A stretch of 63,829 bases of DNA, taken from Fidelibacterota bacterium. Lineage in GTDB: Bacteria > Fidelibacterota > UBA8477 > JABMPR01. The stretch's first letter is position 1. Every line of letters begins with the position of its first letter. The translations under genes and the position numbers were made by a program. Below the pieces are notes generated by a model. The model searched no databases, was not told where the DNA came from, and worked only from the letters and a program-made list of their open reading frames with translations. Shown here in pieces: positions 23,719-61,085 of this stretch. The stretch covers positions 1-63,829 of the forward strand of contig JABMOT010000130.1 in NCBI GenBank assembly GCA_013202385.1, read 5' to 3'.

Positions 23719-24119
23719 TGGTAAACCGATATCCTTAATTGGTCCAAAAGTAATTTCACTCATTAGCTTCCATAATGCCAATAAGTGTGCCATAATTCAT
23801 CTGATAGGTTAGATGATTGTAAATAAGGGATTTATGAAATTGTCACAGGTAACCAAGGTAGGAATTAATTTACACATTCCAGGATATATTGGCACATTTC
23901 TATTCAGGCTGGAGTTTGATTACCCCACACCCTTAACACTGTGTCGTCCATGTTTGCGATCCATTGCTGATAAATCTGCCTGTTCTGTATCCATTCAACA
24001 ATTCCTCCTTGTTTCGGATAAGGAATCACATTAAATAAGCATTCAAAAGTAATGGATTCGAGGTATCTACACATCTCAATTCTTTTGCATTGATCGATGT
24101 TGGTTCTGGCGATGCGTGA

Positions 24120-25598: not shown

Positions 25599-25746
25599 GT
25601 CGTGGTTAACGACCGACCTAAAATCTGGCAGAAAACGACTTTCTGAGGAAAGATCATTTTCATCTGCAGCGATAGATTTTTCCTAAAGGATCTATCCAGA
25701 CATACGATACTCACAGTAAGTTAGTATTTCGAAATGAATAGGTACG

Positions 25747-28119: not shown

Positions 28120-28139
28120 ATTTTGTTTTACAAGGATAA

Positions 28140-28559
28140 ATGATGATTTATAGGAGACCTCTCAAGAAACAGACATTACTCGTCGTTGAAGATGATTACA
28201 GCTCAAGGCTGCTGCTTAAACACTTGCTTCAAAAAATGAATATTGAGGTAATAGCCGCTGAAAGCGGTGAGGAAGCACTCGAATTGATGAAGGATAGAAG
28301 GGATGTATCTGGAATGTTGCTTGATATCGCACTTGGGAACGGTATAACGGGCCTCGAGCTTGGTGAACAACTCAAGTTAAAAGAGCAATTTAAGAATATT
28401 CCCATGGTGGCCGTTACAGCCTATGAAAGGCAACTTTTGGGCGATTACCAAGGGAAAGGTTTTACCGGCTATCTACAAAAGCCCTATTCTGCAGCAGAGC
28501 TTGGATCCATGCTTTCCTCACAATCACTTGGTAAAAATGGTCCTAAGCTGATCCTATAA
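28140..28559 (+). CDS. Stand-alone response regulator receiver
   Basis: LLVVEDDYSSR...MLLDIALG...VAVTAY...KP. AAGGA RBS upstream. Confidence 0.8.
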   Translation: MMIYRRPLKKQTLLVVEDDYSSRLLLKHLLQKMNIEVIAAESGEEALELMKDRRDVSGMLLDIALGNGITGLELGEQLKLKEQFKNIPMVAVTAYERQLLGDYQGKGFTGYLQKPYSAAELGSMLSSQSLGKNGPKLIL

Positions 28560-28562
28560 AGC

Positions 28563-29921: not shown

Positions 29922-29977
29922 GCGCAGGCTGAATTACTGAATGACCAAAATTAACTCTGGGACAAGCTGCTCATTTG

Positions 29978-30958: not shown

Positions 30959-30961
30959 GAT

Positions 30962-37168: not shown

Positions 37169-37182
37169 ATTAGCCCTCGATA

Positions 37183-38244
37183 TCAATCTTTTATTTTATG
37201 ATTTAGACAAACCAAAGCCCGGCCCACTTTACCTGCCTTCAATTCCGAGAAAGCCCTATTTATATCACCCAGAGAATATTCATGGGTCAACAGCGCGCTC
37301 AAATTAAGTTTATGCTCCAAGTGCCATTCCACATACTTGGGGATATCCAGGTCTGGATTTGTCTCACCACCCCAGGAACCACAGATATTTTTGCCCAATA
37401 TCAAATCCATGGGATCGATTGAGAATTGTTTTCCATGGGGAAGATTCCCGGCGATAATGCATTTACCCCCGTTGTTCATCACCGATTTGAAAGCTGTTTC
37501 CATGGAGACAATAGAGCCGGCAGATTCAATAGAATATTTCACACCTTTCCCTCCGGTTATATCCATGATTACTGCCAGAGCATCCTGGGTCGAGGCATTG
37601 ATTGTGTGAGTTGCCCCGCTTTTTGCTGCAAGCTCCAGTTTATAATCCACCACATCCACAGCAATAATTTGTCCGGCACCCAGGGCTGATGCTACAATCA
37701 CAGCACTTAACCCAATGCCCCCAACTCCAAATATGGCAACACTGTCACCGGGTTGGATGGAAGCATTATTGATAACAATCCCCGCGCCAGTTGGAATAGC
37801 ACATCCCAGCAGGGCAGCTTCTTTCAGGGGCATCTCTTTTGAAATGGGTATCAGTCTGTTTTCACTAATGACTGCTTTTTCCATGAATGTGCTTATAGCA
37901 CCTGAATTAATATTCTGCCCTTTAAGCTGATAGGTTGTCGAGGGGACATCCAGGCCAATGCCTTTTATCCAGGTCAACACAACGTGATCACCGGGTTTAA
38001 CTTTTTTAACTCCTTCACCAATTTCGAGTACCACACCAGAGCCCTCGTGACCAAGGGTGTGGGGCAGGTAATTATCTTTACCTTTAAGCCCTTCTATTTC
38101 GTTCAGTTGAGAGTGGCATAGCCCACTATAGGCAATGTCCACAAGCACTTGGCCAGCCTTAAGACTGGGAATGACCATTTCAATAGTGCGCAACGGTTCA
38201 TTTGTCTCGAAAAGTACTGCTGCCTTGGTTTTCATCGTCGTCAT
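37183..38244 (-). CDS. Zinc-dependent medium-chain alcohol dehydrogenase/reductase
   Basis: GLCHSQ...LGHEGSGVVLEIGEGV..KPGDHVV Zn-binding signature and the GVGGIGLSAV Rossmann motif. Confidence 0.85.
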   Translation of the reverse strand: MTTMKTKAAVLFETNEPLRTIEMVIPSLKAGQVLVDIAYSGLCHSQLNEIEGLKGKDNYLPHTLGHEGSGVVLEIGEGVKKVKPGDHVVLTWIKGIGLDVPSTTYQLKGQNINSGAISTFMEKAVISENRLIPISKEMPLKEAALLGCAIPTGAGIVINNASIQPGDSVAIFGVGGIGLSAVIVASALGAGQIIAVDVVDYKLELAAKSGATHTINASTQDALAVIMDITGGKGVKYSIESAGSIVSMETAFKSVMNNGGKCIIAGNLPHGKQFSIDPMDLILGKNICGSWGGETNPDLDIPKYVEWHLEHKLNLSALLTHEYSLGDINRAFSELKAGKVGRALVCLNHKIKD

Positions 38245-38258
38245 GTGTTGATCTCTTT

Positions 38259-39062
38259 TCAGTGCATGGAACGCATTTTACCGCCATCCACCACAAAACA
38301 TGATCCTGTAATCCAGGCAGCATGTTCTGAGGCTAGCAGTAAGATTAGGGGTATGATATCTTTTGGTTGTCCGATACGATTCAGCGGGATGGAATTTACT
38401 GCCAGCTGATTCTCAATAGTAGCAGCTTCATCCACAGTGATCTTTTTCTCGTGTGCAACTCGCTCAATATTTCGGGTCCAGGCCCCACTCTCAAACGTAC
38501 CTGGTACAATACAGTTTACTAATATATGATCTGGTGCAAACAGGCTGGAAAGGTGTTTACTAAGATTGATTAATGCAGCCTTACTGGCTGAGTAATGCGG
38601 GTTAAAGATACCAGGTTGTAACCCCGTTATGGATGCAATATTAACAACTCTAGGATTTTTTGATTTTTTTAAATAAGGGTGTGCCGCTTTCACAGTATGG
38701 ACAACACTGAGCACATTTTTCTTATATGTATCCATCCAATCCTTTTCATCTAAATCAAAAAATCCACCAAATTTATCAGTACTACCCACATTATTGATAA
38801 CGACATCCAGAGATCCCATGAGCGCTACTGCTTTCTCAATGGCCTGCACTACCTCCATTTTGTTGGTCACATCAGCAGGAACTGCAAAAATGTGAGAACT
38901 TATTTTTTTTAATTCGTTCAAAGCTTTGTCCAGCTTGATTTTTTGTCGGCCACATATTGTGACTGTTGATCCTGCTTCAATAAAAGCTTTGGCTAATTCT
39001 AACCCCAGACCCTCGCTGCCTCCGGTGATAAATACGTTCTTATGGGTAAATTGATACATCAT
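38259..39062 (-). CDS. Short-chain dehydrogenase/reductase (SDR)
   Basis: TGGSEGLG Rossmann motif and the YSASKAA catalytic YxxxK. The start overlaps the upstream stop (ATGA). Confidence 0.85.
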   Translation of the reverse strand: MMYQFTHKNVFITGGSEGLGLELAKAFIEAGSTVTICGRQKIKLDKALNELKKISSHIFAVPADVTNKMEVVQAIEKAVALMGSLDVVINNVGSTDKFGGFFDLDEKDWMDTYKKNVLSVVHTVKAAHPYLKKSKNPRVVNIASITGLQPGIFNPHYSASKAALINLSKHLSSLFAPDHILVNCIVPGTFESGAWTRNIERVAHEKKITVDEAATIENQLAVNSIPLNRIGQPKDIIPLILLLASEHAAWITGSCFVVDGGKMRSMH

Positions 39063-39859
39063 TTCAACCTTGTGCTATAGGTTAAGTCCCATTGGTCTCT
39101 GATGCTTAGACCTCCATCTACTGTGATGACCTGTCCGGTAACAAATGAGGCACTTTCCGAGCAGAGGAATTGGACAACATTGGCAATATCATCAGATTTT
39201 CCAACCTTCTGCAAAGGGTGACATGATTCAGCCATTTTTCTATATTCAAGATTGGCCTCACTGCTAAATCTTTCACGATGCTCATCCTGAACAATAAAAC
39301 CGGGTCTCACAGCGTTAACCCTGACTCCCTTTGGACCACCATGCACGGCCAGATAACGAGTGAGGTTGTCCAGTGCCGATTTCGCAAGATGATAAGCAGT
39401 TGATTCCTGGCCGACCATGGTAGAAGCAATGGATGAGATATTTACTATACACCCGGTTGACTTCGCCTTCCACATTTCCTCGATATATGATTGAGCCAGG
39501 AAAAGGGGGGCTTTTATGGATACATCCATGGTTAATTGCCAGTTGTCTTCTGTTTCAGCGAGGGGTGCCGTCCTACTTCCACCTCTGGCATTGTTAACAA
39601 GCGCATCAATCTTCCTGTATTTCTTAAACAGCCGGGAAAGCATTTTCTCAATATCTTGAACTATTTGGAGATCCAGGCAATAATACTCGACCTTCAATCC
39701 ACGCTCCTGACATTCAGTACTAACCGATTGAAGCCGTTTTTCATCATTATCAACCAGAATTACTTTATAACCTGACTCCGCGAATTTCAGAGCTATGTTT
39801 TTACCGATTCCGCGACCGGCACCTGTTACTATGACTCTCTTTTCAGTGTTATTTTTCAA
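39059..39859 (-). CDS. Short-chain dehydrogenase/reductase (SDR)
   Basis: TGAGRGIG and YHLAKSA (YxxxK). TTG start. Confidence 0.85.
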   Translation of the reverse strand: MKNNTEKRVIVTGAGRGIGKNIALKFAESGYKVILVDNDEKRLQSVSTECQERGLKVEYYCLDLQIVQDIEKMLSRLFKKYRKIDALVNNARGGSRTAPLAETEDNWQLTMDVSIKAPLFLAQSYIEEMWKAKSTGCIVNISSIASTMVGQESTAYHLAKSALDNLTRYLAVHGGPKGVRVNAVRPGFIVQDEHRERFSSEANLEYRKMAESCHPLQKVGKSDDIANVVQFLCSESASFVTGQVITVDGGLSIRDQWDLTYSTRLK

Positions 39860-39890
39860 TGTTCCTGCTAGTATCTATAATTTATTTTAG

Positions 39891-40769
39891 TTATGTATTA
39901 TTAATGAGCTGTGCAAATTCATGCTGCAAATTTTTGAATGTGTCCCATTCAACCATAAATTTTTGATTCCTGTTGGCAAATCCGAAACCTTTAGGATTCA
40001 CTAACTCCCGCTCCATCGCTTCCTGATGATGCCCGGGATGCTTCCATATTAAGTAGGGTTTGTCACTCAGAATGGCTCTATTGCAGGGGCCACTGGCCAT
40101 CCCCATAAATGCTGTTGACATATCCACCAGAGCCAGGTCCAATTCTAAATTCCCACCATGATTTTGCACAGAAATAACATTGTGCAATGAGCAAATCACA
40201 TCATCTACCTTGTCCAGGCCGATGATGACAAATTTCACATCAGGCGTTTCTTTTTCAGAATACAGAAAAAAGTCGAGCCAGGATTGTTGATTAGCATTAC
40301 TCTGCAGGTCCAGGGCATTATTTTTTAAATGAATGGTGATCATCTTCGCATCAGCAACATGTCTATCCATCCAGATCTGGGCTAGTTGTTTTACAGTCTC
40401 GGGAGTTTTCATCTGAACTATTTTGTGTGTTTTCTCCCAATATTTTTGAACGGTCTGGTAGCTTTCTGAATAACTGCAACTGGCGTAATCTGTATTTCCC
40501 GGCCACCTGTAGTCGGTAGCACTGACATTTACTTCTTCCTGCCTGTTAACGAAATTGAGATTCCCCAGATACGGGTTTAAGCGTGAGATAATGGTAATTA
40601 TTTCTCTTGAAGTACCTCCCCTGCTGTTGCAAACGTAGAGATCAACATTCTCAACATCTAACACTTCCCTAAGCTGGAGTAATTCTTGTTGAAATATCAG
40701 GAATTTGCCAACGCCATTCTGAATTGCGTTCAAATCCCAGACTCCGACAATATTTGTGTACTTAGTCAT
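39891..40769 (-). CDS. Hypothetical protein, paralogue of the N-terminal domain of the giant glycosyltransferase (GT-B/GT9-like fold suspected)
   Basis: Colinear similarity to residues ~1-340 of the 30962..37168 product, for example WMDRHVADAKMITIHLKNN vs WIDTHVGKKKIVTITLREC, and NLELDLALVDMSTAFMGMASGP vs NLEIRIALYERAYLNMFVANGP. Confidence 0.5.
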   Translation of the reverse strand: MTKYTNIVGVWDLNAIQNGVGKFLIFQQELLQLREVLDVENVDLYVCNSRGGTSREIITIISRLNPYLGNLNFVNRQEEVNVSATDYRWPGNTDYASCSYSESYQTVQKYWEKTHKIVQMKTPETVKQLAQIWMDRHVADAKMITIHLKNNALDLQSNANQQSWLDFFLYSEKETPDVKFVIIGLDKVDDVICSLHNVISVQNHGGNLELDLALVDMSTAFMGMASGPCNRAILSDKPYLIWKHPGHHQEAMERELVNPKGFGFANRNQKFMVEWDTFKNLQHEFAQLINNT

Positions 40770-40791
40770 TTATATTCATCATGTTCTTTAA

Positions 40792-41469
40792 CTATGGATT
40801 GATGAGTCCGACGCCAACGCCCATTAAATAATGCGACATTGGACCATACCCGGTGTGAATGACTTCATCGTTCATTGAAAACATAAATACATTCTTAAAG
40901 TACTTCGATAACAATTCCCGCATTCTACTGTGGGATAAGAGATTCACGTGCCCTTCTTTACTTCCGGCTGAGGCATATTGATTTGCCGTAATGTTTGGTG
41001 TACCCATGATAAATACACCATCCTCATGGAGACATTTGCAGATATTCTCAAAATACAAATGTTCTCTCTCAGTCGGTATATGTTCGATTACATCAAGGGA
41101 ATATGCGGCGGTAAAGACTGCATTCGGATGTTCTTTTGTGATATCCAGGCACTCCATTGAAAAGGCCAAATCGGCATAGCGCTCAAGATTATCCTCGATT
41201 AGGAGTGGCTCCCAATCCACGCCATGGATATGACCAACCGTCTGTGCAACGACGGGAACACCAAACCCATCGCCTACACCGATTTCAACAACGCTTTCAT
41301 GTCCTTCTAACATTTTAGCGACAAATTTGTATCTTGATAATAAGAAGCCTAAATGTCTAGGGTCATGATTCCATATATGCGTTGTATAGGGTCCCAACAC
41401 AGCCGGTTTTGATTTGTAATTATCAAACTGTACTTGATTTTGTTTTTCTTTTGCTTTGTTTTCGTTCAT
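40792..41469 (-). CDS. Class I SAM-dependent methyltransferase
   Basis: Motif I VVEIGVGDGFG, post-I and motif II (AYSLDVIEHI), and size are typical of the Methyltransf_11/23 type. Confidence 0.75.
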   Translation of the reverse strand: MNENKAKEKQNQVQFDNYKSKPAVLGPYTTHIWNHDPRHLGFLLSRYKFVAKMLEGHESVVEIGVGDGFGVPVVAQTVGHIHGVDWEPLLIEDNLERYADLAFSMECLDITKEHPNAVFTAAYSLDVIEHIPTEREHLYFENICKCLHEDGVFIMGTPNITANQYASAGSKEGHVNLLSHSRMRELLSKYFKNVFMFSMNDEVIHTGYGPMSHYLMGVGVGLINP

Positions 41470-41482
41470 GATACTTATCTTC

Positions 41483-42397
41483 TCATTTTTCTAATAATAT
41501 TTTAATTTTACGTTTTATGTTGGGTGAAGTAAAACCATAATATTCACACTGATCTTTATAATTTCCATAGTTGTGTGAGAATTCATTGGGAATATTAATG
41601 GCATCTGAATGGATATTATCCAATGCTTTGACTGCACGGATTACATCATCTCCGATACCGCCATATTCAGAGTGTTCTTCAATGACAATATAGTTTTTTG
41701 TTTTTGAAACACTTTCCACCAGGGTAGCGCTATCAAATGGTTTGATTGTGGGGTAATACAAAACTTCAGCGCTGATTTGATTTTGTTTTAATTCTTGAAT
41801 GCTTTCCATCACTGTACCAAGTTGGGGTCCAATGACGACAATGGTGATATCTGTCCCCTCTTGAACCACCACGGCCTCACCAAATTTGATTTTATGGTTT
41901 GGAATCTCATAGTTGTGCTTATGATCCGGCAATCTGAAATAGGTCAGGTAGTCATTCTTATAGGTCTGCTCAAATAAGATTTTGAATTCATTTGGCATGG
42001 CTGGATATACTATCTGGGTGCGAGGTAATGCTTTGATCAAAGCGATATCATCGTGACAATAATGACTGACACCCAAACCTGAATAGTCAAAAGCACTTCC
42101 AACACTAATAAGGTTGCCCCCTCTTTCCTGATAACAAAAGTCCAATTTTATTTGTTCAAAACTGCGTTCGATGAGAAAGGGTGCAATAGTGTGAGCAACC
42201 GGATGAAAACCTACATGGGACAATCCAGCAGACATACTGACAATGGTTGGCTCGCAAATTCCTACGTTGTAAAATCTTCCAGGACACGCCTGTGCAAAGG
42301 GTTGTAATGCAAAATGACTGATATCCCCTACCAGCACCACGAGCTTTGGATCGATCAAGCCAACTTCCAACATGGTTTCAGCGAACGTATTCCTCAT
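41483..42397 (-). CDS. Transketolase, C-terminal (pyrimidine-binding) subunit
   Basis: Split-transketolase B-subunit pattern (VGDISHF...GICEPTIVSMSAGLS..., C-terminal domain). ATGA overlap with the N-terminal subunit gene. Confidence 0.85.
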   Translation of the reverse strand: MRNTFAETMLEVGLIDPKLVVLVGDISHFALQPFAQACPGRFYNVGICEPTIVSMSAGLSHVGFHPVAHTIAPFLIERSFEQIKLDFCYQERGGNLISVGSAFDYSGLGVSHYCHDDIALIKALPRTQIVYPAMPNEFKILFEQTYKNDYLTYFRLPDHKHNYEIPNHKIKFGEAVVVQEGTDITIVVIGPQLGTVMESIQELKQNQISAEVLYYPTIKPFDSATLVESVSKTKNYIVIEEHSEYGGIGDDVIRAVKALDNIHSDAINIPNEFSHNYGNYKDQCEYYGFTSPNIKRKIKILLEK

Positions 42398-43170
42398 GAT
42401 GATAATTCTTCCATAATTTCAGCGTACTCCAGGGGATTAGGAATTTTATGATGCCACGGACCGTGGGTTTCCATAAAACGTACACCTTTGCCTTTAATCG
42501 TTCTGGCGATAATGACAGTTGGTTTTCCATTCGAAGTTCTGCTGAATTTATTAAAAGCAATATCCAACTCAGCTTCATTATGACCGTCACATTCCAGTAC
42601 ATTCCAACCAAACGATTCCCATTGTTTTATGATGTTGGGATGTGGCATGATTTGGGCTGCAGACCCGTTATAATCCACGATGAGGCAGAGGTTTTCCAGG
42701 TTCAAATTTTGCGCGACAAGGGCTGATTCCCAGACCGTCCCTTCATGGGACTCCCCATCACCTACGAGGACAAATACTTTGTTTTCTTTTTTATTGATTT
42801 TATGGCCCAGGGCAATCCCGACTGAATATGGAAAACCATGTCCCAATGATCCAGTCGATGCCTCCACTCCAGGAATTTTTACCCGATCAGGATGACCACC
42901 CAGCATTGCGTTGAATTTGCCATAATTATCCAGATCAGCTTGCGTGATGAAGCCATATTTTTCAAGCACAACATAAAGTGCGACTCCGGCATGACCTTTA
43001 CTTAAAATAAAATAATCCCGATCCGTCCATTCTGGATTGGCACTGTCGTATTTCAGATGATTAGCATACAGCGTGTCAATAATATCGATAACCGAAAAGC
43101 TACTGGGTATATGACCTTCTCCTCCATTGGTGATCGTATTTACAATTGTTTTACGCAGTTCAGTATTCAT
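42394..43170 (-). CDS. Transketolase, N-terminal (ThDP-binding) subunit
   Basis: GHIPSSFS, SKGHAGVALY, GSLGHGFPYSVG and VLVGDGESHEG ThDP-binding motifs. Confidence 0.85.
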   Translation of the reverse strand: MNTELRKTIVNTITNGGEGHIPSSFSVIDIIDTLYANHLKYDSANPEWTDRDYFILSKGHAGVALYVVLEKYGFITQADLDNYGKFNAMLGGHPDRVKIPGVEASTGSLGHGFPYSVGIALGHKINKKENKVFVLVGDGESHEGTVWESALVAQNLNLENLCLIVDYNGSAAQIMPHPNIIKQWESFGWNVLECDGHNEAELDIAFNKFSRTSNGKPTVIIARTIKGKGVRFMETHGPWHHKIPNPLEYAEIMEELSS

Positions 43171-43195
43171 GTTAATTAAACCTCATATCTTAAGC

Positions 43196-44680
43196 TTAGT
43201 GATGGATGCCGAGCTTAGTCCGGGTTTGTTTCCGATGATCATTCAATTGCTCCACACTCATAAACATCATTCGAGCAATTTTTTCTATATTTTCAGGTGT
43301 TTTAAAATTTATCCTATCCCATTCATAGGCTCTTAATACTTTCAGTTCCAATGGGGTAAATTCATCTGTAGTAATAAATCCTTCACTGGTACCAAAATAT
43401 TTTGGATTCCGAAAATCGAAATTTTCGGGTAATAAGTTTTGTTCTTTGGCAATTTTATACAAATCTGTTTTGGGATACGGAGTGGCTATATGGAATGAAA
43501 CCAAATCAAAGTTCATTGCTTCGGCAAACCGGAACGTTTCTCTGATCTCATCCCAGGTTTCTCCAGGCATACCAATCACAAAATTAGCCGCAATCTCGAT
43601 GCCTAACTCATTGCACTTTCTCACTATATTTGGGAATATGCCAAGTTTAACTGGTTTTCGAATAATTTTATGCAGCACCCTGTCATTACCAGATTCTACG
43701 GAAACTGTGATCATCTTGCATCCAGAGTCTTTCATTAATTCCAATAATTCATCATCAAGATGCCAGGCAGAAACATTGGGCATTTTCCAGGTAATATTAT
43801 ATTTACGGTCAATGAATGCTTGCATAATGGTCATGGCATGCTCTCTATCATCTAAAAAACATTCATCGAGAAAACTCAGATGACGCACACCATGATTTTG
43901 AATTAAACTATCAATCTCTTCCAGCACATCCTCAGTAGAACGATAATTTATTCCTCTACCTCTGATCGTCCGTGCTGCACAAAAAGAGCAATTGTATCTG
44001 CAGCCATACGAAGTCAGTAAGATTGCGGTTGGTCCCTGAAAGCTGTAGTTGTATTCTTTGGCAGACTGCGTTAAATAAAACTCAACATCAATCTTTGAAT
44101 AGTCCGGCTTAATGTTGGGATCAATATTAATCTCAGTACTTTTCGGTCGACGAATAATGTTCTCGCCATTAGCATCGCAATAACCGATACCTGAAATTTT
44201 TCTGGCTTCCTCAAATTGCCCTTCAAGAAGATGGTGAATGAATTCCAAAATGCCACCCTCTGCCGGACCAATGAAGATATAGTCGATATTTTTATCCTGA
44301 AGGGCTTCCTCACTCATGAGGCTCGGATAAATTCCACCAAATACCGTGATGCAATCCGGAGTTGCCTGCTTCACTATTTCAAATGCCTTGTGATATTGCT
44401 GGAAATATTCTACTGAAATGCCGGAGACCAGAAATATCCTGGGTGAGATGGTCTTGATCTGCTGTAAACATTCTGCTTCACTTAAATCCAACGCATTTGC
44501 ATCCAGAAGGAAGAAATCGTGATTTTCCTTCAAAATGGCTGTAAGAATTAAGGCTGAATGCGGTACCACCATCCAGGGGCGCTTGTTAAACCAACGCGTA
44601 TTCGGAATAAACAAGAGTACATCATTGGGTGTTGAGCTTTTCACCCTTGTGGGGCTATCAGATTTGTTGATGTGGTTCAT
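43196..44680 (-). CDS. B12-binding-domain radical SAM enzyme (class B)
   Basis: N-terminal cobalamin-binding-like Rossmann region, then the CRYNCSFC (CxxxCxxC) cluster and the radical SAM core. GGAGAG RBS. Confidence 0.85.
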   Translation of the reverse strand: MNHINKSDSPTRVKSSTPNDVLLFIPNTRWFNKRPWMVVPHSALILTAILKENHDFFLLDANALDLSEAECLQQIKTISPRIFLVSGISVEYFQQYHKAFEIVKQATPDCITVFGGIYPSLMSEEALQDKNIDYIFIGPAEGGILEFIHHLLEGQFEEARKISGIGYCDANGENIIRRPKSTEINIDPNIKPDYSKIDVEFYLTQSAKEYNYSFQGPTAILLTSYGCRYNCSFCAARTIRGRGINYRSTEDVLEEIDSLIQNHGVRHLSFLDECFLDDREHAMTIMQAFIDRKYNITWKMPNVSAWHLDDELLELMKDSGCKMITVSVESGNDRVLHKIIRKPVKLGIFPNIVRKCNELGIEIAANFVIGMPGETWDEIRETFRFAEAMNFDLVSFHIATPYPKTDLYKIAKEQNLLPENFDFRNPKYFGTSEGFITTDEFTPLELKVLRAYEWDRINFKTPENIEKIARMMFMSVEQLNDHRKQTRTKLGIHH

Positions 44681-44710
44681 TATATCTCTCCATTTCTCAG
44701 CATCATCAGA

Positions 44711-45472
44711 CTAGAAGAAACATCTTCCCTGTCCACCATCTACAGTAATAGCAGACCCGACGATAAAGGATGCATGTTGGGAGCATAAAAAAGTCACAAT
44801 GTTACCTATCTCCTCAGGTGACCCAAACCGTTGGATGGCCATCCTTTCAGACAGATATTTCTCTACGTGTTCAGGTCGCTCTTTTGAAGTCATATCCCAA
44901 TAGCCTCCCTCGGTGAAAACGGCTCCGGGTAATACGGCAGATATATTTATGCCGTCAGGAGATACATAGCGGCCTAAACTACGGGTATAGGCATTCAGCG
45001 CTGCTTTTATGGAACAATAAGGTGCGGTGCCTTGATTTTCCAGGGAGGCTATTGAAGAAATATGAACAATGCGTCCCCACTTGTTTAATCTCATCTGCGG
45101 AATCAGCATTTGATTCAGCTCAACCGCTATCTCAAGATTAAAACGATAAACCTGACGCCACTCTTCTATACCACACAGTGGATCTGTGAAACCTAAATTT
45201 CCACCAACATTATGTACAACAATATCGGGATGTCCGAATTTGTCAATCATTTCGGCAACCATTTTTTGGGGATTCCCCTCTGGAACCAGATCATAGGCAA
45301 GCCCAATATGATTTCCAGGATGGGTGTCCAAAAATGAGTTGATATCCCCTTGATTTCGGGCAACGATGGCGACCTGGACACCTTCTTTTGCCAGGCTGTC
45401 TGCGATAGCTCTTCCAAGACCACGACTTGCTCCCGTGACCAATGCTTTTTTATTTTTAATTCCTAAGTCCAT
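44711..45472 (-). CDS. Short-chain dehydrogenase/reductase (SDR)
   Basis: TGASRGLG and YCSIKAA (YxxxK). Confidence 0.85.
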   Translation of the reverse strand: MDLGIKNKKALVTGASRGLGRAIADSLAKEGVQVAIVARNQGDINSFLDTHPGNHIGLAYDLVPEGNPQKMVAEMIDKFGHPDIVVHNVGGNLGFTDPLCGIEEWRQVYRFNLEIAVELNQMLIPQMRLNKWGRIVHISSIASLENQGTAPYCSIKAALNAYTRSLGRYVSPDGINISAVLPGAVFTEGGYWDMTSKERPEHVEKYLSERMAIQRFGSPEEIGNIVTFLCSQHASFIVGSAITVDGGQGRCFF

Positions 45473-45479
45473 GTGCTTC

Positions 45480-46673
45480 CTAAATGATCATTAAAGGATT
45501 AAGAATCCTTTTGGGGTGGTGTTTATTTAATTTGTTTAGGATCGGTAATCTATTGTCCAAAGCAGTCAGTAAAATATTTGCAGCCGAGAAATCAAGAGTA
45601 CCGGGTTGTTGAATTTTTACCGGTAAATTGATATAACCAAGTCCTGCTTTTTGAGGATCGTTGTCCAGGATATTTTTAAAATTTGAGAAGTCGGTACCAA
45701 GATGATATCCCAGGATGGGTAGCATTAATGCGGCCCCATAACCGTACCATACTTCATTTTCTAAATTATTTAGTATTTCAGCAGTGATGGCCATTTGATT
45801 TTTAAACGACTGATATTTATCCTGAATAGCTGCCATGGACTTTTCTGGATTAAATACAATGGGATTATTCGCTGAAGTACTCTTAGCGCGTTTTTTAAAG
45901 GCAATAATCAACGCGCCCCAATAATTATAATTAATGGTATAATCGATGAGGACAGCATCCAGCAGACCAAGCATGTGCAGAAAGGATTGTACACTAAAAT
46001 ACTGGAGGTGCTGATGGAATACTTGATCAAAACGTAAATTCTCCAGTAGGGGGTCAAAACAGGGAAACTCAAATACAAATATTGTTTCATCACCTGTTTT
46101 CAGAAAAAGGGATTCTAGCAGCGCTTTTGGATCTTCAATATGTTCCAATGTGTGTTGTGATACCACCAATTCAGGATAATCATCAAGGAAATCACTAAAA
46201 TCTATGCTCTCTATTTTATCTCCAGAGAAATTGATTTCACCGTCCTTATATACTTGTGGATTGTCCTTCCAAATCAAATCAACCCCAAGGTACTGCTTTG
46301 ATTTATTTTCCTGCTTGAATAGTTTTAACAGATAACCATCATTGCACCCCAAATCGACAATACTTTTAAATACTCTACCCGGAAACAGAGTATCGATATA
46401 GCGCGAAAAATATTGCGAACCTCCACTAGCCGTTTCGCTGGCTGATGTTCGAAATCCGTATGTGTCCCCGTACATAAAATTGACATCGATGATATTTTTT
46501 ATCTGGGCATGACCACACGCCGTACAAAGCAGGAGTTCTTGATCATAATTCCTAAATTTACTGTCCTGCCCAGATTTACTATAAATGCCAGTTAAAGGAA
46601 ATTCAGGAAGCTTGATGACACTCTCCAAAGGACTACCACAAACAGAACATTTTGGATTCATATTCTTTTGCAT
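45480..46673 (-). CDS. Zinc-ribbon C-methyltransferase of the NDP-hexose C-methyltransferase (TylCIII-like) type
   Basis: N-terminal CSVCGS...CTACGH zinc ribbon, a class I SAM motif IVDLGCNDGYLL and a C-terminal extension. The family assignment is from memory of the Methyltransf_13/14 architecture. Confidence 0.7.
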   Translation of the reverse strand: MQKNMNPKCSVCGSPLESVIKLPEFPLTGIYSKSGQDSKFRNYDQELLLCTACGHAQIKNIIDVNFMYGDTYGFRTSASETASGGSQYFSRYIDTLFPGRVFKSIVDLGCNDGYLLKLFKQENKSKQYLGVDLIWKDNPQVYKDGEINFSGDKIESIDFSDFLDDYPELVVSQHTLEHIEDPKALLESLFLKTGDETIFVFEFPCFDPLLENLRFDQVFHQHLQYFSVQSFLHMLGLLDAVLIDYTINYNYWGALIIAFKKRAKSTSANNPIVFNPEKSMAAIQDKYQSFKNQMAITAEILNNLENEVWYGYGAALMLPILGYHLGTDFSNFKNILDNDPQKAGLGYINLPVKIQQPGTLDFSAANILLTALDNRLPILNKLNKHHPKRILNPLMII

Positions 46674-47729
46674 TTAAAATGGACCTTTAAACCAGTCCCC
46701 TGGCACATCATGGGGTGTATCACCGCGTTCAACCAATTCAGATCCAACAATGTTTTTATTAAACATCTCTGCAATAGTGTCAATAATATCCTCTGACCTC
46801 TTATAAAATCCGCGAGTTAAGCCCCTGCTGGTAGGCGTTGGGAAATCTGGAAGTGCAAGTCGTTTGGGAGCTTGCTTAAGCGCATTAAAACAATCCATGC
46901 TTACTCTGGCGACAATTTCACCGGCAACAGAATTCGTCGCCACGCCAGTGTCAATAGCAAGCAGTCGGCCTGTTTTCTTCACGGAAGCATAGATAAGGTC
47001 ATAATCCAGAGGCTTAATGCTAAGTAGGTCAATTAATTCGCAGGAGATTCCCTCTCTTTTTAAAATCTCCACAGCATGCAAGGCTTCAACAGACATGTAT
47101 GAGAATGAAACGACTGTAATATCATCACCTTGCGTCAAACAGGCTGCCTTCCCGATTGGAACCCGGTAGTCACCATCGGGAACTTCACCGTTTAAATTAT
47201 GCAACCAGCGGTGTTCGATAAATATGACGGGATTGTCATCAAAAATACTCTCAAGCAGCAAGCCCTTCGCATCAGCGGCCGTGGTTGGCATGACCACTTT
47301 TAGCCCGGGGATATGGGCGAATAGTGCCTGTAAGTTTTGTGAATGTGTTGGTCCTTGCCCCCATCCACGACCAACGATAAGTCTGATGGTAATGGGAACA
47401 GAGCTATTGCCGCCGAACATATAATGCCACTTTGCCGCACTATTTACCAGCTGGTCCATGGCCAACAGAAAGAAATCCAGCCTTTGATGGGTCATGATGG
47501 GACGAACGCCATTCAATGCTGCGCCAACTGCGATTCCAGTCATTGCATTTTCAGATGTGGGCATATCAAAAACCCGCGAACTGCCAAATTTTTCCTGCAA
47601 ACCACTTGAAGTACCGAAAACCCCTTTAGGATCCGGTATTCCCAACCCGTAACAGATTACTGACTGATCCATTTCCATTGACGTTGCAATGGCATCATTG
47701 ATGGCTTGTGAGTAAGTGATAATACTCAT
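46674..47729 (-). CDS. ThDP-dependent 2-oxoacid dehydrogenase E1 beta-subunit homologue
   Basis: Transketolase pyrimidine-binding plus C-terminal domains typical of PDH/AcoB E1 beta (FDMPTSENAMTGIAVGAA, HSQN...). The start overlaps the E1-alpha stop (ATGA). Confidence 0.85.
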   Translation of the reverse strand: MSIITYSQAINDAIATSMEMDQSVICYGLGIPDPKGVFGTSSGLQEKFGSSRVFDMPTSENAMTGIAVGAALNGVRPIMTHQRLDFFLLAMDQLVNSAAKWHYMFGGNSSVPITIRLIVGRGWGQGPTHSQNLQALFAHIPGLKVVMPTTAADAKGLLLESIFDDNPVIFIEHRWLHNLNGEVPDGDYRVPIGKAACLTQGDDITVVSFSYMSVEALHAVEILKREGISCELIDLLSIKPLDYDLIYASVKKTGRLLAIDTGVATNSVAGEIVARVSMDCFNALKQAPKRLALPDFPTPTSRGLTRGFYKRSEDIIDTIAEMFNKNIVGSELVERGDTPHDVPGDWFKGPF

Positions 47730-48397
47730 AGTGTATTTTTTTCTGCATATAAGCTGGTAAAGGCCATTCCCGGATCCGGAAAAGGTGAAGCTATGGCAAA
47801 TTCAAAGGCTTGATCCACTTCATGCTGAACATCCTTATGGTATTTTTCGACGTTACTCGCTGATAAGCTTAGTAGTTTTTCCTCGCAATGCTTGAGGGGA
47901 TCTTTTGATTGCCAGGAAAGGAATTCCTGTTCGCTTCGATACCCGATAGTATTGTCATAATTTGGACCGCAATGCTCCAGCCATCGGTAAGTTGAAAATT
48001 CAATAAATTGAGGACCTTGACCGAGTTTAATTTTCTCCACAGCGCTATTCGTTTTTTCGTAAACTTCGGCCAGATCGTTGCCATTTCCCGTTGTTGTTTG
48101 AATGCCCATAGCGCGAACCATCTCATGAATTTTTCTATTTTTGGGTTGCCGTACACTCAAGGGTGAATACACAGAATACAGATTGTTTTCACAGATAAAT
48201 AACACGGGCAAGTTCCTGACCACAGCGAAGTTGACGGACTCATAAAAGACACCCTCTTCGATAGCGCCATCACCAAAAAATACGCAGCTAACATTGTTGG
48301 TTTTCTGTAATTGAATTGAAAGGCCCAGTCCAACGGCAATGGGTATGGTATTACCCACAATTGCAGTACTGCCCATAAATCCAACAGATTTATCACT
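47726..48397 (-). pseudogene. 5'-truncated E1 alpha-subunit homologue (keeps the GDG...NN ThDP motif but lacks roughly the N-terminal third)
   Basis: Homology begins at about ..VGFMGSTAIVGNTIPIAVGLG and includes FFGDGAIEEG...ICENN. The GGSMH-type region expected just upstream is absent. The in-frame sequence upstream of ~48397 is only an out-of-frame reading of cheW. The first plausible in-homology ATG is at 48376. The ORF track extends to 48478. Confidence 0.55.
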
Positions 48398-48806
48398 TAC
48401 GATCAATTCCTGAGGTAACCAGATCAGGTGTCGGTTCAATCTGATCGGACGGGATGCGAAGCACTTCACGGACGGCATCCACGATGAATCCTACCAGGGT
48501 TCCATTCGTCTCAACAACCATAATTCGGGTTTCCTGGGCGTTCTTTTTACTGTCTTCAACCAGACCAAATCTACGCCTTAAATCAATGATGGGGATAATC
48601 TGTCCCCTCAAATTGATGACGCCTTCAACGAAGGGTGGAGACTCCGGAATATGGGTAATGTTCACAAGACGATTGATTTCTCTTACTTTGCTGATGTCCA
48701 CGCAATAGCCTTCAGTACCCAGTTGGAAGGCAACCAGCTGGCGCAAATCCGTGGTTGCAGTAGTGTAGCTATCTGAATGGTTCTTGGATATGGTGGCCGT
48801 TGTCAT
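48393..48806 (-). CDS. cheW: CheW-like coupling protein, apparently 3'-truncated
   Basis: CheW motifs are present (FVEGVINLRGQIIPIIDLRRRFGL; VGFIVDAVREVLRI). The ORF stops at ..TSGIDRK followed by tandem TGA TAA, where CheW proteins normally continue for ~20-25 more residues (the ..G..rlvilLDidkil strands). AAGGAG RBS. Confidence 0.75.
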   Translation of the reverse strand: MTTATISKNHSDSYTTATTDLRQLVAFQLGTEGYCVDISKVREINRLVNITHIPESPPFVEGVINLRGQIIPIIDLRRRFGLVEDSKKNAQETRIMVVETNGTLVGFIVDAVREVLRIPSDQIEPTPDLVTSGIDRK

Positions 48807-48884
48807 GGCTCAACTCCTTATATTTATGTGCAGAGCGAGTGTACAAATCGTCCAGTAGACCTGTACGCTCCCTCATAGTTTTTG

Positions 48885-50492
48885 TTAAACCTTGAACTGA
48901 TCCATCAACTTATCAAGACTCTGAACTTCACGATTCAGTTGTTCTGACGAAGCTGCCAATTCCTGGGCACCTGATGCAGATTGTTTGGAAACGGTTGAAA
49001 CACTCTCAACATTTTTGGAAATTTCCTCCACACCAGCACTCTGCTCTATGGCCGCCGAGGCGATTTGAGAGATGGCTGCATTCACCTGATCGATGGACCC
49101 ACTGATTTCTCCAAGGGCAGCTCCTGCTTCACCTGCCAATTTCTGACCCGATTTCGATTGTTCAGTGATTTTCTCCATGGCTTCCACCGAGGAATTGACA
49201 TCATTTTGGATCTGCTTGATCTTAGCTTCAATATCAGCAGTAGCTCCAACAGTTCTTTCAGCCAGCTTTCTAACCTCATCAGCAACCACAGCAAACCCAC
49301 GGCCGGCATCACCAGCTCTGGCTGCTTCAATATTGGCATTGAGGGCCAACAGGTTGGTCTGGTCAGAGATGTCATCGATAACCTGAATGACATCAGCGAT
49401 TTCCTGGGAGCGCGTCTTTAAAGCTCCGATCTGCAGGGCAGCAGATTCAACGATGCTTGCGATCCCTTCGATACCCGCGATGGTTTGATTCACCGTCCCG
49501 CTCCCTTTTACGGCAGCCATATTGGCTTCTTTGGCATTATTCTGAGTTTGGGCAGCATTGTTGCTGGTTTCCAGAATCATGGCGCTCATCTCTTCAATGG
49601 AGGTGGCCACTTCGCTGAGTTGAGCCTGTTGCTCTTCAGCTCCGGCTGCCATCTCCTCTGAAGCAGCTGAAATCTCACCACCAGCAGTGGCAACCTGTTT
49701 GGCACTCGCCTTTACGTTGGAGATGACTGTATGAATCTTCTCAACGAATACATCAAACCATTTACTTAATTCCCCGATCTCATCCGAACTCGTGATGTTA
49801 AGGCGAACCCGCAGATCGCCTTCACCCTGGGCAATATCTTTCAACCGATCGGTGATCCGTTTGATTCCGCTGACGATGGAGCGTGTGATAAAGACCGCCA
49901 GTAAAACCGAGGCACTTAAGGCAACTATTGCCAGGATGGTGGATATGGTTTTCGCCTGGCCAGCTTCCCGATCAAATTCTTCTGAAGCTTCCACCATTTC
50001 TGCAGTTAAGCTGGTAGATATCTTCCCCAGGAGTCTTTCAAATTCCACCTTCATCGCATCGATCTCAGCGTCAGTTTCTTTGATCCGCTTCATATCATCG
50101 GCTTGTACCAGCCGCACCACTGTTTGGTAATCCTCGTTATATTCATTCACCATTTCTTTTGCTGCGGCGGCCCATTTCAACTCTTCTGGCGTATCAACCA
50201 ATTTTCCGATCGCCTCCATATCTGAGACCATTTCGGAATATACTTCCTCCCATTCCCGAGCGTTAAGGGCCAGATCACGATTAATGATGGCATCAGCTAT
50301 GACACCATAAGCCTGGGCTGACATCCCCGCCGCCTCCTGAACCAGCACGGCATCAGCAGCCCGCTGTGCGCTAATATCCTCCAAGGTTTTCAGCTTATTG
50401 AGATTACTAAAGTTAAAGACCACCAGGATCAATATGATCATGGCTACAAAGCCAAATCCAAAATACAGTTTGTTGGCAATTGTTAATTTCAT
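48885..50492 (-). CDS. Methyl-accepting chemotaxis protein (four-helix-bundle-type periplasmic sensor, HAMP, MCP signalling domain)
   Basis: Two TM helices, HAMP and the conserved hairpin [39 protein letters not shown]. The cytoplasmic domain is a close protein-level paralogue of the 16532..18145 product. Confidence 0.9.
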
Positions 50493-50566
50493 TTTAAATA
50501 CCCTCTTTCCCGTTTTTGTTCATTGAATTCTGCCAGGCGCCAAATAAGCTTTGCTTCCAGCCCCCA

Positions 50567-51544
50567 CTAAAAACTTACCACTGTTTGGATGACAATTTGA
50601 TTATCCGGGTCATTTTCATTGACCCAGTTTGATAAATATTCTGCGCGACATTCAAAGCCCTCACTAATCTTATAGCCAAGACCTGCTGTAAGTCGTTTTG
50701 CTGTTTCCGTATCTTTTTCCCAGACACCGTAGCGCACGGAGAGAAAAACGGGTAGATTTACTATTTGCTCCATATCCAAGTCTAATTGTGCATAATATCC
50801 ACTATGTTGGTCATCTGCTCCCGAGTTATCAAAGTCACCCTCTAACACAGCAGTCGCTTGCTGGTATTCAAAACGAGCTTCCAGGGGACCGAAGGCGCTT
50901 TGAAAATCCACACCAATTATATTGGGGACTGCTCCTGAATCATTGTCTGCCGTTTGAGTTGCAAACGAAGCACCTATTTCTAAAATATTTGCCAGGGGAA
51001 TTACAGCTCTTCCACCAGTAGCTATACCAGCCTGGGCACCATTGACTATAAAGTAATTGAAATTGAGAAATGAAAGTTCACAGTACAGGTTAAGCCCCAT
51101 ATCATTCCAACTGTCAATCGTCTTTTGATTTAATAGTGGAGCACTTACAAGTTTACGATCCGGTGAAGGGATGTACAGGTAATCAAGCCCAAACGGCACA
51201 TCAAACTGGCCGACCATGAGGCCAGAATGCTGGATATAACCACCCCGTGGTGGGTGGGCTTCATCAGAGCCGGTCAGGTGAATATCAAGAAAGCCGGCAC
51301 CTGCCTCAAAAAGTCCATCATCGGCATTATACGCAATGGCACCCTCAAACGTAACTCGGGGCGATACAATGGCTGATAAATCGAGTTCAAATTGGCCATA
51401 GCCAAAAGCGGCTTCACCGTCTTCAGTTAATTCTTTGGTGTATACAATATCGGCGAACCCGGAATATTGAATTTGCCCTGTTACAGTATTTGCACAGATA
51501 AGTAAAAGTGTCGTCGCCAGAATCGTTCTTTGGGTCATTGACAT
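50567..51544 (-). CDS. Outer-membrane beta-barrel (porin-like) protein
   Basis: Signal peptide, alternating amphipathic beta-strand pattern rich in Y/G/D, and a C-terminal ...VIQTVVSF with terminal Phe. Confidence 0.6.
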   Translation of the reverse strand: MSMTQRTILATTLLLICANTVTGQIQYSGFADIVYTKELTEDGEAAFGYGQFELDLSAIVSPRVTFEGAIAYNADDGLFEAGAGFLDIHLTGSDEAHPPRGGYIQHSGLMVGQFDVPFGLDYLYIPSPDRKLVSAPLLNQKTIDSWNDMGLNLYCELSFLNFNYFIVNGAQAGIATGGRAVIPLANILEIGASFATQTADNDSGAVPNIIGVDFQSAFGPLEARFEYQQATAVLEGDFDNSGADDQHSGYYAQLDLDMEQIVNLPVFLSVRYGVWEKDTETAKRLTAGLGYKISEGFECRAEYLSNWVNENDPDNQIVIQTVVSF

Positions 51545-51961
51545 AAAAGTTAAACTCCCTTCGTGGGTGATCGTTATGGGTCACTCATCTATCGTTATAT
51601 ATCGTAGGTCAGTCCTCTTTCTTTAGGATAACAACAGGAACATATTTTTTAGTTCACATAGAATATTTACTGCTTAAGTCGATATTTGGTCTTCGAATTT
51701 TTTCATTCTTACTTTCATGATGATCAATCTTATCAACTTCAGTGCCATGGATAAGGAGATCATCAGATTGCTTATCTTGCATAGAGCTTTTTGTAAATGG
51801 AGAATATTTTTTATGAATTTAGCGGAAAATAATACCCCCAAATTAGGCATAATATTCCCGTATAGCGAACCTGTATCTCGATTGACTGGGTAATTATACT
51901 CGTCAATCCTTTGGTTTAGCGTCCATGATTATCGCTGCTTGCTTTCGTTACACAACAGGCT

Positions 51962-51992
51962 AAAAAAAAAGCCCCCAGCAGTTGCCGGGGGC
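51962..51992 (-). terminator. Rho-independent terminator of the flagellin-HTH transcription unit
   Basis: On the minus strand, GCCCCCGGCAACTGCTGGGGGC is followed by nine T residues, 28 nt downstream of the stop at 52020. Confidence 0.8.
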
Positions 51993-52019
51993 TAATATAC
52001 AAACTGGAGCGGTGGTGAA

Positions 52020-58135: not shown

Positions 58136-58178
58136 CTATATTTATCTGGAGATTCCTGGAACCTCGAAAATATTTCGA

Positions 58179-61076: not shown

Positions 61077-61085
61077 AATTAGTTG

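Follow-up and report, generated by a model that had tools for sequence, protein, structure and literature searches.

The stretch of DNA analysed here, referred to as the window, is a contig of 63,829 nucleotides from a Fidelibacterota bacterium, and it carries a 28.5-kb flexible island beside a flagellin gene (Table 1). The sequences flanking the island (53490-62044 and 18509-23452) are 88-96% identical to those of island-less sister strains (L176-L183), in which the interior (23453-51984) is missing, and the core genes of these sisters are ~95% identical to the window. Searches for tRNAs and repeats and Pfam scans of the island genes revealed no tRNA, flanking repeats, or integrase or transposase domains at the island. 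Within it, a porin-MCP-CheW cassette, whose gene order recurs in two relatives (L007 and L010), meets a long sugar-modification and glycosyltransferase operon. Beyond its E1-beta gene, this operon encodes a C-methyltransferase, an SDR, a B12-radical SAM protein, a split transketolase, an MT and a 292-aa protein, followed by two SDRs, a Zn-ADH, a 2074-aa multi-domain GT, a cNMP-binding protein and a GT2/TPR protein. The point at which the two units meet, referred to as the joint, lies between truncated copies of cheW (cheW') and of a thiamine diphosphate (TPP)-dependent dehydrogenase E1 alpha gene (E1-alpha').

Table 1 Features of the flexible island and of the joint within it.
Feature	Position	Strand	Remarks and basis
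Flexible island, 28.5 kb	23453..51984	.	Not found in island-less sister strains (L176-L183, compared with the window by blastn)
Response-regulator gene at the island left edge	23311..23793	-	Island-less sisters retain only its last ~47 codons, joined to what is left of a second flagellin gene
Rest of the sugar-modification/glycosyltransferase operon	28563..46673	-	Pfam; synteny with L004 and the P0012 contig
E1-beta gene, intact	46674..47729	-	Start overlaps the E1-alpha' stop; Pfam Transket_pyr and Transketolase_C; 84% identity to L004 E1-beta
E1-alpha', 5'-truncated remnant of TPP-dependent dehydrogenase E1 alpha	47726..48394	-	Codons 104-325; Pfam; 75% identity to P0002 residues 104-325
Recombination joint (very probable)	48394..48395	.	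Last cheW-derived base 48395, first E1-alpha-derived base 48394; T at 48395 ambiguous
Spurious 5' extension of the E1-alpha ORF	48395..48478	-	ORF codons 1-28, cheW DNA out of frame
cheW', 3'-truncated CheW gene	48393..48806	-	Keeps 137 of 174 codons, followed by a TGA TAA that arose at the joint; Pfam, comparison with P0121
901-nt tract (MCP 3' end, spacer, cheW codons 1-137)	48395..49295	-	99.8% identical to sister contigs with intact cheW
MCP gene (4HB sensor, HAMP, signalling domain), upstream of cheW'	48885..50492	-	Pfam
Mosaic zone inside the MCP gene	49296..49800	-	Identity to sister contigs drops to 77-96%, then vanishes
Porin-like beta-barrel gene, first in the porin-MCP-CheW cassette	50567..51544	-	Weak OMP beta-barrel matches
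Terminator-like hairpin and T-run after the HTH_17 gene	51970..51993	-	Coincides with the island right edge; homology to island-less sisters ends at 51985

The product of cheW' matches solved CheW structures (2QDL and 2HO9), and the gene ends early. As an earlier note, made from the letters of the window alone, had described, its ORF of 137 aa has the C-terminus ..VTSGIDRK and runs into the tandem stops TGA TAA (48395-48390); the Pfam CheW profile (PF01584, E = 2.4e-34) is matched over positions 1-103 of 138. A complete CheW domain takes up ~138 positions and includes both beta-barrel subdomains with their last two strands, of which cheW' falls short. The best 120 homologues are 156-189 aa long, and a 174-aa allele (P0121) is identical to cheW' over residues 1-137 and then continues for 37 more. 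cheW' is thus 37 residues short, and not 20-25 as that note had estimated. In an AlphaFold model of P0121, the lost segment forms strands 139-145 and 148-153 and helix 161-173. The remainder keeps 25 of 25 family-invariant residues and has no frameshift. Lacking two of ten beta-strands and the C-terminal helix in this model, cheW' is probably a dead stump.

The intact allele is present in five sister-strain assemblies, in the order MCP, cheW (174 aa), a spacer of ~300 nt and a gene for a large hybrid sensor histidine kinase (at least 972 codons), and it runs on as ...AAGTATATCGAAGG... where the window sequence turns to E1-alpha. The alignment to relatives that had been proposed thus recovered an intact cheW 3' end, along with a full-length E1-alpha (P0002, 325 aa). 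Among genome contigs the intact CheW finds no better match than 56% identity, and a close reference genome is therefore lacking; among metagenome contigs, in the subset without the window's own contigs, the best match is 78%.

At the other side of the joint, E1-alpha' lacks its 5' part. The ORF at 47726-48478 (minus strand) matches Pfam E1_dh (PF00676) over positions 89-299 of 300, with profile positions 1-88 absent, and a BLASTP alignment with its closest full-length relative (P0002, 75% identity) places residue D29 of the ORF, at window position 48394, on D104. The resulting deficit of 103 residues (32%) bears out the earlier claim that the N-terminal third is missing. The stretch leading up to the ATG at 48478 is indeed cheW read out of frame, and the first in-frame ATG of E1-alpha', at 48376, yields 216 aa. 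The NCBI gene model of 250 aa (P0261) includes the spurious extension, while JGI and Logan give 216 aa; the 250-aa NCBI and 216-aa JGI 'E1 alpha' models are artefacts of the stump. On long contigs the nearest homologues have lengths of about 304-352 aa, and the short entries among the best 120 homologues are mostly on few-kb contigs or marked 'partial' by NCBI. E1-alpha' keeps the thiamine-diphosphate/Mg motif GDG-x(25-30)-NN (FFGDGAIEEG...FICENN) and all 58 of the 58 invariant residues from G111 onward, again with no frameshift. A complete PP domain also has an N-terminal helix, the first core strands and the motifs (Y/H)R-x-H and GKGGSMH, a region missing from E1-alpha': residues 1-103 of P0002, which are lost, include the nearly invariant H65, R66, H68, G97, G98, S99, M100 and H101. 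With four helices, two core strands and the H-R-x-H and GKGGSMH motifs gone, E1-alpha' too is likely to be a dead stump, judging from sequence and modelled structure.

Both genes are cut at one place, 48395/48394, as had been proposed. The DNA match between the window and the five sister contigs with intact cheW stops exactly at 48395, and homology to E1-alpha begins at 48394 in the alignment with P0002. On the minus strand the joint reads ...CGTAAG(T)/GATAAATCT..., where no nucleotide other than the bracketed T is ambiguous. At most 1 nt is common to both sides, the E1-alpha parent side being known only via the 75%-identical P0002. The same joint is found, base for base, in JGI 3300032524, JGI 3300032736 and the Logan assembly of SRR28106102, in which 4.6-12.4 kb of sequence carries 0-2 SNPs relative to the window. 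Both alleles have been sampled in metagenomes (the broken one in four assemblies, the intact cheW in five), which pins the breakpoint to one nucleotide and allows the event to be dated as very recent. The retention of all invariant residues in both stumps, without frameshifts, likewise marks the event as recent.

A misjoin by an assembler of two unrelated contigs would break both genes at one point, as seen here, and all of the data are metagenomic. However, the earlier suggestion of a chimeric contig is effectively refuted by the recurrence of the identical joint, with its near-identical flanks, in four assemblies from different pipelines, one of them a Logan contig, and by a repeat search that found no repeat at the joint able to cause a reproducible misjoin. 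It is equally hard to believe that the short CheW and the short E1-alpha are natural functional variants. Both remnants keep open frames and every invariant residue of the retained part, including the thiamine-diphosphate motif of E1-alpha', but such lengths do not occur among the best 120 homologues per family, bar the short E1-alpha entries mentioned above. Natural short forms in relatives had been named as the observation that would speak against truncation, and every close homologue is full length. Furthermore, the allele identical to cheW' over residues 1-137 extends beyond it, and the lost segments hold nearly invariant residues and core secondary-structure elements. The joint is real, and we hold with high confidence that it is a recombination scar which left two truncated genes.

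DNA has been lost on both sides of this scar. The 3' end of cheW, the 5' end of E1-alpha and the sister kinase were not found by tblastn in the whole 63.8-kb window, which covers 48 kb on one side of the joint and 15 kb on the other, so a local inversion or insertion can be rejected. In two relatives with intact E1-alpha, a block of hldE-like, SIS, epimerase, epimerase and methyltransferase genes lies directly upstream of E1-alpha; none of these five heptose-precursor genes is found anywhere in the window, and the sugar operon has thus lost its head. The two stumps are co-oriented, in the order 5' cheW then 3' E1-alpha. Other scars are present at the same locus: in the island-less sisters the truncated second flagellin gene is joined to the truncated response-regulator gene, and in L184 and L186 a truncated RR139 gene is joined to a truncated HTH_17 gene. 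As related strains show two or more further scars here that cut genes, the locus appears to be deletion-prone.

The shared orientation of both genes, the absence of DNA on both sides and the other deletion scars at the locus favour a plain illegitimate deletion, to which we give about an even chance. The recent deletion fusing two operons that the earlier note had listed among its possibilities therefore stands as the favoured reading, with the import of a cassette as its rival. We infer that a single deletion took out all DNA from cheW codon 137 to E1-alpha codon 104. The loss on the cheW side would amount to at least 3.3 kb (37 cheW codons, the ~300-nt spacer and the hybrid sensor histidine-kinase gene) and that on the sugar side to ~5 kb (the hldE-like, gmhA-like SIS, two epimerase and methyltransferase genes and 309 nt of E1-alpha). 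The heptose-modification operon would thereby have been deprived of its promoter-proximal precursor genes, and what remains of it would now stand directly behind the porin-MCP-cheW' unit; as there is no room for a terminator between the two, any transcription of the operon would presumably be read-through. What counts against a deletion is that no genome sampled combines cheW, the kinase and this particular sugar operon on a single molecule, as the parent is presumed to have done.

Sequence relationships on the two sides of the joint lend weight to the rival. For nine sugar-operon genes, there are no relatives of at least 90% identity outside window-type assemblies, whereas ENA assemblies do contain them for the flanking cheW and GT2/TPR genes; this indicates that the joint is where strain-specific sugar DNA ends. 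Intact E1-alpha genes in ENA and NCBI data are 71-75% identical to the window copy, the closest at 75%. Given these nine genes and this E1-alpha, the two sides of the joint may stem from different strains, which favours cassette import. Both flanks are found in ENA and NCBI strains. L185 matches the window over 27527-30306 with 98.3% identity, up to the end of the L185 contig at 30306, so the left limit of the strain-specific sugar cassette would lie somewhere between 30306 and 37183. To the right, the 901-nt tract differs from each sister contig by 1-2 SNPs, against a core-gene divergence of 4.9% (binomial p ~1e-15), and ends abruptly within the MCP gene at 49296-49349; because of this abrupt end, a recombination event near the joint is needed under any reading.

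These observations would be accounted for by a one-ended cassette replacement, laid out as in homology-facilitated illegitimate recombination, in which a fragment from another strain recombined homologously at one end and was joined illegitimately at the other, with the recipient DNA between them replaced. The homologous end would lie on the left, in the conserved GT2/TPR, cNMP or giant-GT genes, or on the right, in the signalling domain of the MCP, and the joint would be the physical end of the incoming fragment. Both the mechanism, with its coupled insertion-deletion outcome (PMC3240628), and the swapping of flagellar glycosylation islands between marine bacterial strains (PMC4033161) are on record. 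On the other hand, microhomology at the joint is at most 1 nt compared with the usual 3-10 bp, although homology-free junctions also occur (PMC3240628); the left end of the putative import has not been located; and plain deletions are demonstrably frequent at the locus. Absence of the cassette from assemblies that are fragmentary is weak evidence. We regard this replacement as a tentative possibility, and the more specific proposal, that an 18-kb sugar cassette entered a Marinimicrobia chromosome by a natural one-ended (homology-facilitated illegitimate) import whose end the joint has captured, as rather unlikely. A larger rearrangement (an inversion or translocation) with one breakpoint at the joint would leave the cheW 3' end, the kinase and the operon head elsewhere in the genome, and it would agree with the window holding one joint only and with sister MCP-cheW-kinase contigs that lack a chromosomal placement. 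This seems quite unlikely given the absence of the missing parts from the DNA around the joint. In addition, the sister kinase has no close relative, full-length or partial, in the protein collection (best match 47%), with samples holding window-type contigs included and no longer contig found, and the JGI and Logan sources in which the window type occurs have yielded none of the intact 174-aa CheW proteins of this cluster.

The joint had also been read as the right-hand boundary of a horizontally acquired glycosylation island. Of this reading, the part that holds is that strain-specific sugar DNA stops at the joint; the right edge of the island itself, as measured against the island-less sisters, lies at 51984, 3.6 kb beyond, so that cheW', the MCP gene and the porin-like gene are all inside the island, and the GC argument for horizontal origin finds no support. 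Spot counts had suggested 38-45% G+C in the sugar operon against 47-60% in flanking genes, whereas computation gives the sugar module 42.2%, the cheW/MCP/porin module 45.4% and the core 44.9%. GC, GC3 and tetranucleotide profiles revealed only this 2.7-point difference in GC and no sharp step at the joint, and thus give no support for a foreign origin. Scans for promoter and terminator consensus sequences, run on the surroundings of the joint, the intact allele and the DNA upstream of the L004 E1-alpha, gave chance-level counts, the one exception being the strong hairpin that follows HTH_17.

Replacement flexible genomic islands, including flagellar glycosylation islands, are known from aquatic bacteria such as Alteromonas (PMC4033161). 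Like them, the island in the window has a fixed site by flagellin genes, conserved flanks, sugar-modifying and glycosyltransferase genes, and a gene content that appears to differ between strains with ~95% identical core genes, again with no integrase, tRNA or flanking repeats. No sister strain allowed a different cassette to be assigned to this site. Unlike them, it also carries chemotaxis and two-component modules, and one internal boundary is a gene-cutting illegitimate joint rather than a clean homologous swap in the flanks. Homology-facilitated illegitimate recombination, described in Acinetobacter, S. pneumoniae and P. stutzeri (PMC3240628), resembles the present case in that a tract near-identical to other strains meets an almost homology-free joint at which DNA was lost. 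However, the loss of at least 8 kb and the putative insert of up to ~18 kb exceed the ~1 kb typical in experiments, the microhomology is at most 1 nt, and no homologous anchor or donor has been identified. As in ordinary deletion pseudogenes, two co-oriented genes are cut once each with a stop codon at the joint and no further decay, and related strains have comparable scars at this locus; nothing essential differs from such pseudogenes, and what is special is that the intact allele has been sampled at 99.8% identity. The scar is an ordinary, well-resolved case of a known process and not a new kind of system.

With regard to the enzyme, the full-length relative P0002 aligns end to end with the E1-alpha subunits of heterotetrameric (alpha2beta2) TPP-dependent E1 enzymes of the pyruvate, acetoin and branched-chain 2-oxoacid dehydrogenase family (PDB 1NI4, 1UM9 and 1DTW), and its gene is paired with an E1-beta gene. 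In contrast to those enzymes, the genes lie in sugar-nucleotide operons and not by E2/E3, and the window copy lacks residues 1-103. A functional glycosylation pathway should not be assumed in the window strain. If a one-ended import were true, it would mean that an uncultured marine phylum takes up DNA and shuffles cassettes, and that the headless sugar operon is driven by and co-regulated with a chemoreceptor operon. The main value of the locus is as a clean worked example with both alleles sampled in metagenomes: illegitimate deletions or joins have repeatedly remodelled the flagellin-linked island of this Candidatus Marinimicrobia population, and three or more different scars that truncate genes are seen in related strains.

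The junction of cheW with an E1-alpha gene described in an earlier note was confirmed. As that note had read it, the CheW frame ends at VTSGIDRK followed by TGA TAA and is too short: the best 120 CheW homologues measure 156-189 aa, only positions 1-103 of the 138 in the Pfam CheW model are matched, and the 174-aa cluster representative P0121 is identical to the truncated product (cheW') over 137 of 137 residues before continuing with YIEGVASVNDRLLIILNSDLIFATHELGDLQAVADSN. cheW' is therefore 37 residues short, rather than the 20-25 first estimated. The E1-alpha ORF matches only positions 89-299 of 300 in the Pfam E1_dh model, and its closest homologues on long contigs have ~304-352 aa (shorter entries come mostly from few-kb contigs or are labelled partial). 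BLASTP aligned it to an intact 325-aa E1-alpha, P0002 (75% identity), from ORF D29, equivalent to P0002 D104; the truncated gene (E1-alpha') therefore lacks 103 residues, the N-terminal third reported missing. Codons 1-28 of the ORF are cheW DNA read out of frame, also as described. Public models of this stump differ, with 250 aa at NCBI and 216 aa from the ATG at 48376 at JGI and Logan. Natural short forms do not account for the two stumps, as the closest CheW homologues and the long-contig E1-alpha homologues are all longer.

Comparison with relatives placed the breakpoint to the base. Five contigs from five assemblies carry an MCP gene, an intact cheW (174 aa), a ~300-nt spacer and the gene of a hybrid sensor histidine kinase (≥972 aa), and in all five the homology to the window stops exactly at 48395. 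There the intact cheW allele runs from GATCGTAAGT into ATATCGAAGG, the window runs from GATCGTAAGT into GATAAATCTG, and the intact E1-alpha of contig L004 runs from CTCATT into GATAAATCAG. These alignments fix at 48395/48394 the single cut that had been placed at ~48393..48400, and reveal that TGA TAA in the cheW frame is a product of the joint. The two sides share one T at most, and such homology (0-1 nt) between unrelated genes identifies the joint as illegitimate recombination.

Coordinates of features around the joint and of comparison contigs and scars
Feature	Position	Strand	Remark
Flagellin gene	52278-53138	minus	first in 5' to 3' order
HTH_17 gene	52020-52214	minus	3' of flagellin
Strong hairpin with T-run	51993-51970	minus	after HTH_17 gene
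Porin-like gene	50567-51544	minus	
MCP gene	48885-50492	minus	
cheW'	48393-48806	minus	137 aa
E1-alpha ORF	47726-48478	minus	250 aa
E1-beta gene	46674-47729	minus	
Long sugar-modification and glycosyltransferase operon	ends at 28563	minus	
Flagellin-2 scar	L176 ~11348 = window 23452		also in L177-L180, L182, L183
RR139/HTH_17 joint	L184 12547/12549; window equivalents 28294 and 52138		also in L186
Intact-cheW contig L005			GCA_041294325.1
Intact-cheW contig L006			ERZ964657
Intact-cheW contig L173			ERZ1283782
Intact-cheW contig L174			ERZ23486508
Intact-cheW contig L175			ERZ27060109

A chimeric contig, one of the origins proposed for the junction, was ruled out. The joint recurs without a single base change in contigs of JGI 3300032524, JGI 3300032736 and the Logan assembly of SRR28106102; against the window these show 1, 2 and 0 SNPs over 12.4, 7.1 and 4.6 kb, respectively, and no repeat able to give a reproducible misjoin was found at the joint.

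Both sides of the joint have lost DNA. The window has no counterpart of the sister histidine kinase (another kinase matches it generically, at 25%, and nothing else does), and the protein collection has nothing close to it among either complete or partial sequences (top match 47%). A search of the rest of the window found no cheW 3' end and no E1-alpha 5' end. In both relatives examined that have an intact E1-alpha, L004 (Logan SRR33094770) and the contig of protein P0012 (JGI 3300072015), the gene directly follows an hldE-like gene (CTP_transf_like plus PfkB), SIS_2, two epimerase genes and a methyltransferase gene (~220 aa). None of these five is present anywhere in the 63.8-kb window, and the sugar operon has therefore lost its head, comprising precursor-supplying genes and a third of E1-alpha and, presumably, the operon promoter. 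Promoter and terminator consensus scans near the joint gave nothing usable. Downstream, the P0012 contig is syntenic with the window (SDR, split transketolase, C-methyltransferase, ~295-aa protein, two SDRs, Zn-ADH). E1-beta, 84% identical to that of L004, and the remaining operon are intact and now follow cheW' with zero intergenic space.

The joint lies in a variable part of the genome. Over 53490-62044, eight contigs of sister strains (L176-L183) share ~95% identity with the window. These island-less sisters have the CotH gene of window 18509-23452 ~1.1 kb beyond flagellin and HTH_17, so that window 23453-51984 (28.5 kb) represents a flexible island. An island boundary had been proposed for the joint, and strain-unique sugar genes do start there, but the joint sits inside the island, whose right edge is 3.6 kb away. 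Lack of the island in these sisters reflects a deletion of its own: a second flagellin gene, whole in L181 (273 aa), has been shortened to 149 aa (Flagellin_N only) and runs into the last ~47 codons of a response-regulator gene that the window has in full (23311-23793), with a TGA directly after the fusion as at cheW'. L184 and L186 (~80% identity to the window) have a cut RR139 gene abutting a cut HTH_17 gene, and therefore lack 28295-52137; their HTH_17/flagellin piece is 98.5% identical to the window. This joint is seen in two assemblies whose contigs both stop 264 nt past it; it may reflect a third type of deletion, a recombination, or a contig end induced by a repeat. Island-bearing sisters exist as well, since L185 (ERZ1283812) matches window 27527-30306 at 98.3% identity. 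On the island flank (18525-23165 and 12453-16410), large secreted proteins bear type IX secretion C-terminal sorting domains; they are CotH kinase-like (1546 aa, LTD and beta-helix domains), Temptin-like and Golvesin_C-like.

Next to the joint, 48395-49295 (901 nt) carries 1-2 SNPs relative to the intact-cheW contigs (99.8% identity). Core genes diverge by 4.9% from L176-L183, and the chance of so few SNPs at that rate is ~1e-15. Divergence rises to 10-20% from 49296-49349 and homology is lost by ~49800. This drop falls within the MCP gene, which is therefore a mosaic (49296-49800): its 3' end is 99.8% and its middle 77-96% identical to sister alleles, and its sensor/HAMP part is unrelated, which suggests that sensor domains are swapped between porin-MCP-CheW cassettes. 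Such cassettes, with a beta-barrel or OprB-like porin, are repeated in relatives (L007 3797-10190, in tandem; L010 6743-10570), where each chemoreceptor has the unusual pairing with its own outer-membrane channel. An orphan MCP gene (537 aa; 16465-18508) without adjoining cheW lies between the Temptin-like and CotH genes; it shares ~70% DNA identity with the MCP gene near the joint, occurs in L184 and L186, and is absent from L176-type sisters.

The joint could have arisen by simple deletion of ≥8.5 kb from a presumed parent in which one strand carried cheW, then the kinase and additional DNA, and finally the genes from hldE to E1-alpha. We give this route about an even chance. The deletion scar suggested in the earlier note is borne out in part: the stumps share one orientation, DNA is gone from both sides, and at least two other deletion-type, gene-truncating scars lie at the same locus. 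Alternatively, a foreign sugar cassette may have entered by one-ended import, in a configuration matching homology-facilitated illegitimate recombination (PMC3240628), an origin that we consider possible but rather unlikely. Consistent with import, the sugar genes are strain-unique while both flanks are common to other strains, and a recombination boundary lies 0.9 kb from the joint. Outside the assemblies sharing the joint, no relative at ≥90% identity was found for nine sugar-operon genes (37183-47729); the GT2/TPR gene, at the same cut-off, has nine full-length relatives in ENA. In marine bacteria, flagellar glycosylation islands are known to be replaced from strain to strain (PMC4033161). 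Spot counts had put G+C at 38-45% inside the sugar operon against 47-60% in flanking genes, a contrast that proved an artefact of that method: computed G+C is 42.2% in the sugar module, 44.9% in the core and 45.4% in the cheW/MCP/porin module, the tetranucleotide correlation of sugar module and core is 0.95, and no sharp step was found at the joint.

The joint most likely left both cheW' and E1-alpha' non-functional. In the AlphaFold model of intact CheW (pLDDT 80), the lost part forms strands 139-145 and 148-153 and helix 161-173, so that cheW' lacks two of ten strands; in E. coli CheW (2HO9), the aligned counterparts of this segment are the conserved C-terminal strands. Residues 1-103 of the intact E1-alpha model (pLDDT 84) form helices 5-31, 44-52, 67-73 and 78-85 and strands 40-42 and 60-63, and align to the region of human PDH E1-alpha with the YR-x-H and GKGGSMH motifs, positions almost invariant across the family. 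The event is recent: besides the near-identity of the 901-nt tract, cheW' keeps 25 of 25 invariant residues (34-sequence alignment) and E1-alpha' 58 of 58 from G111 onward, and neither contains frameshifts or internal stops.

The sugar-nucleotide operon has a conserved outline in the window (37183-47729), L004 (5115-16422) and the P0012 contig, with an E1 alpha/beta pair, C-methyltransferase, SDRs and Zn-ADH; the hldE/gmhA-type heptose start occurs only in the relatives, the split transketolase in the window and the P0012 contig but not L004, and a B12-radical SAM enzyme in the window operon alone. Window 30962-37186 encodes a 2074-aa polypeptide in which a methyltransferase, two GT2 domains, a GT1 domain and another GT2-like domain are combined with TPR repeats at the C-terminus; a 2057-aa protein of L004 shares 70% identity with it. 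Judged from its genes, the operon points to a putative heavily modified, branched heptose-type flagellar glycan. The joint is no new kind of element; rather, it adds a new, well-documented example of illegitimate recombination within a flexible glycosylation island, a process already known.
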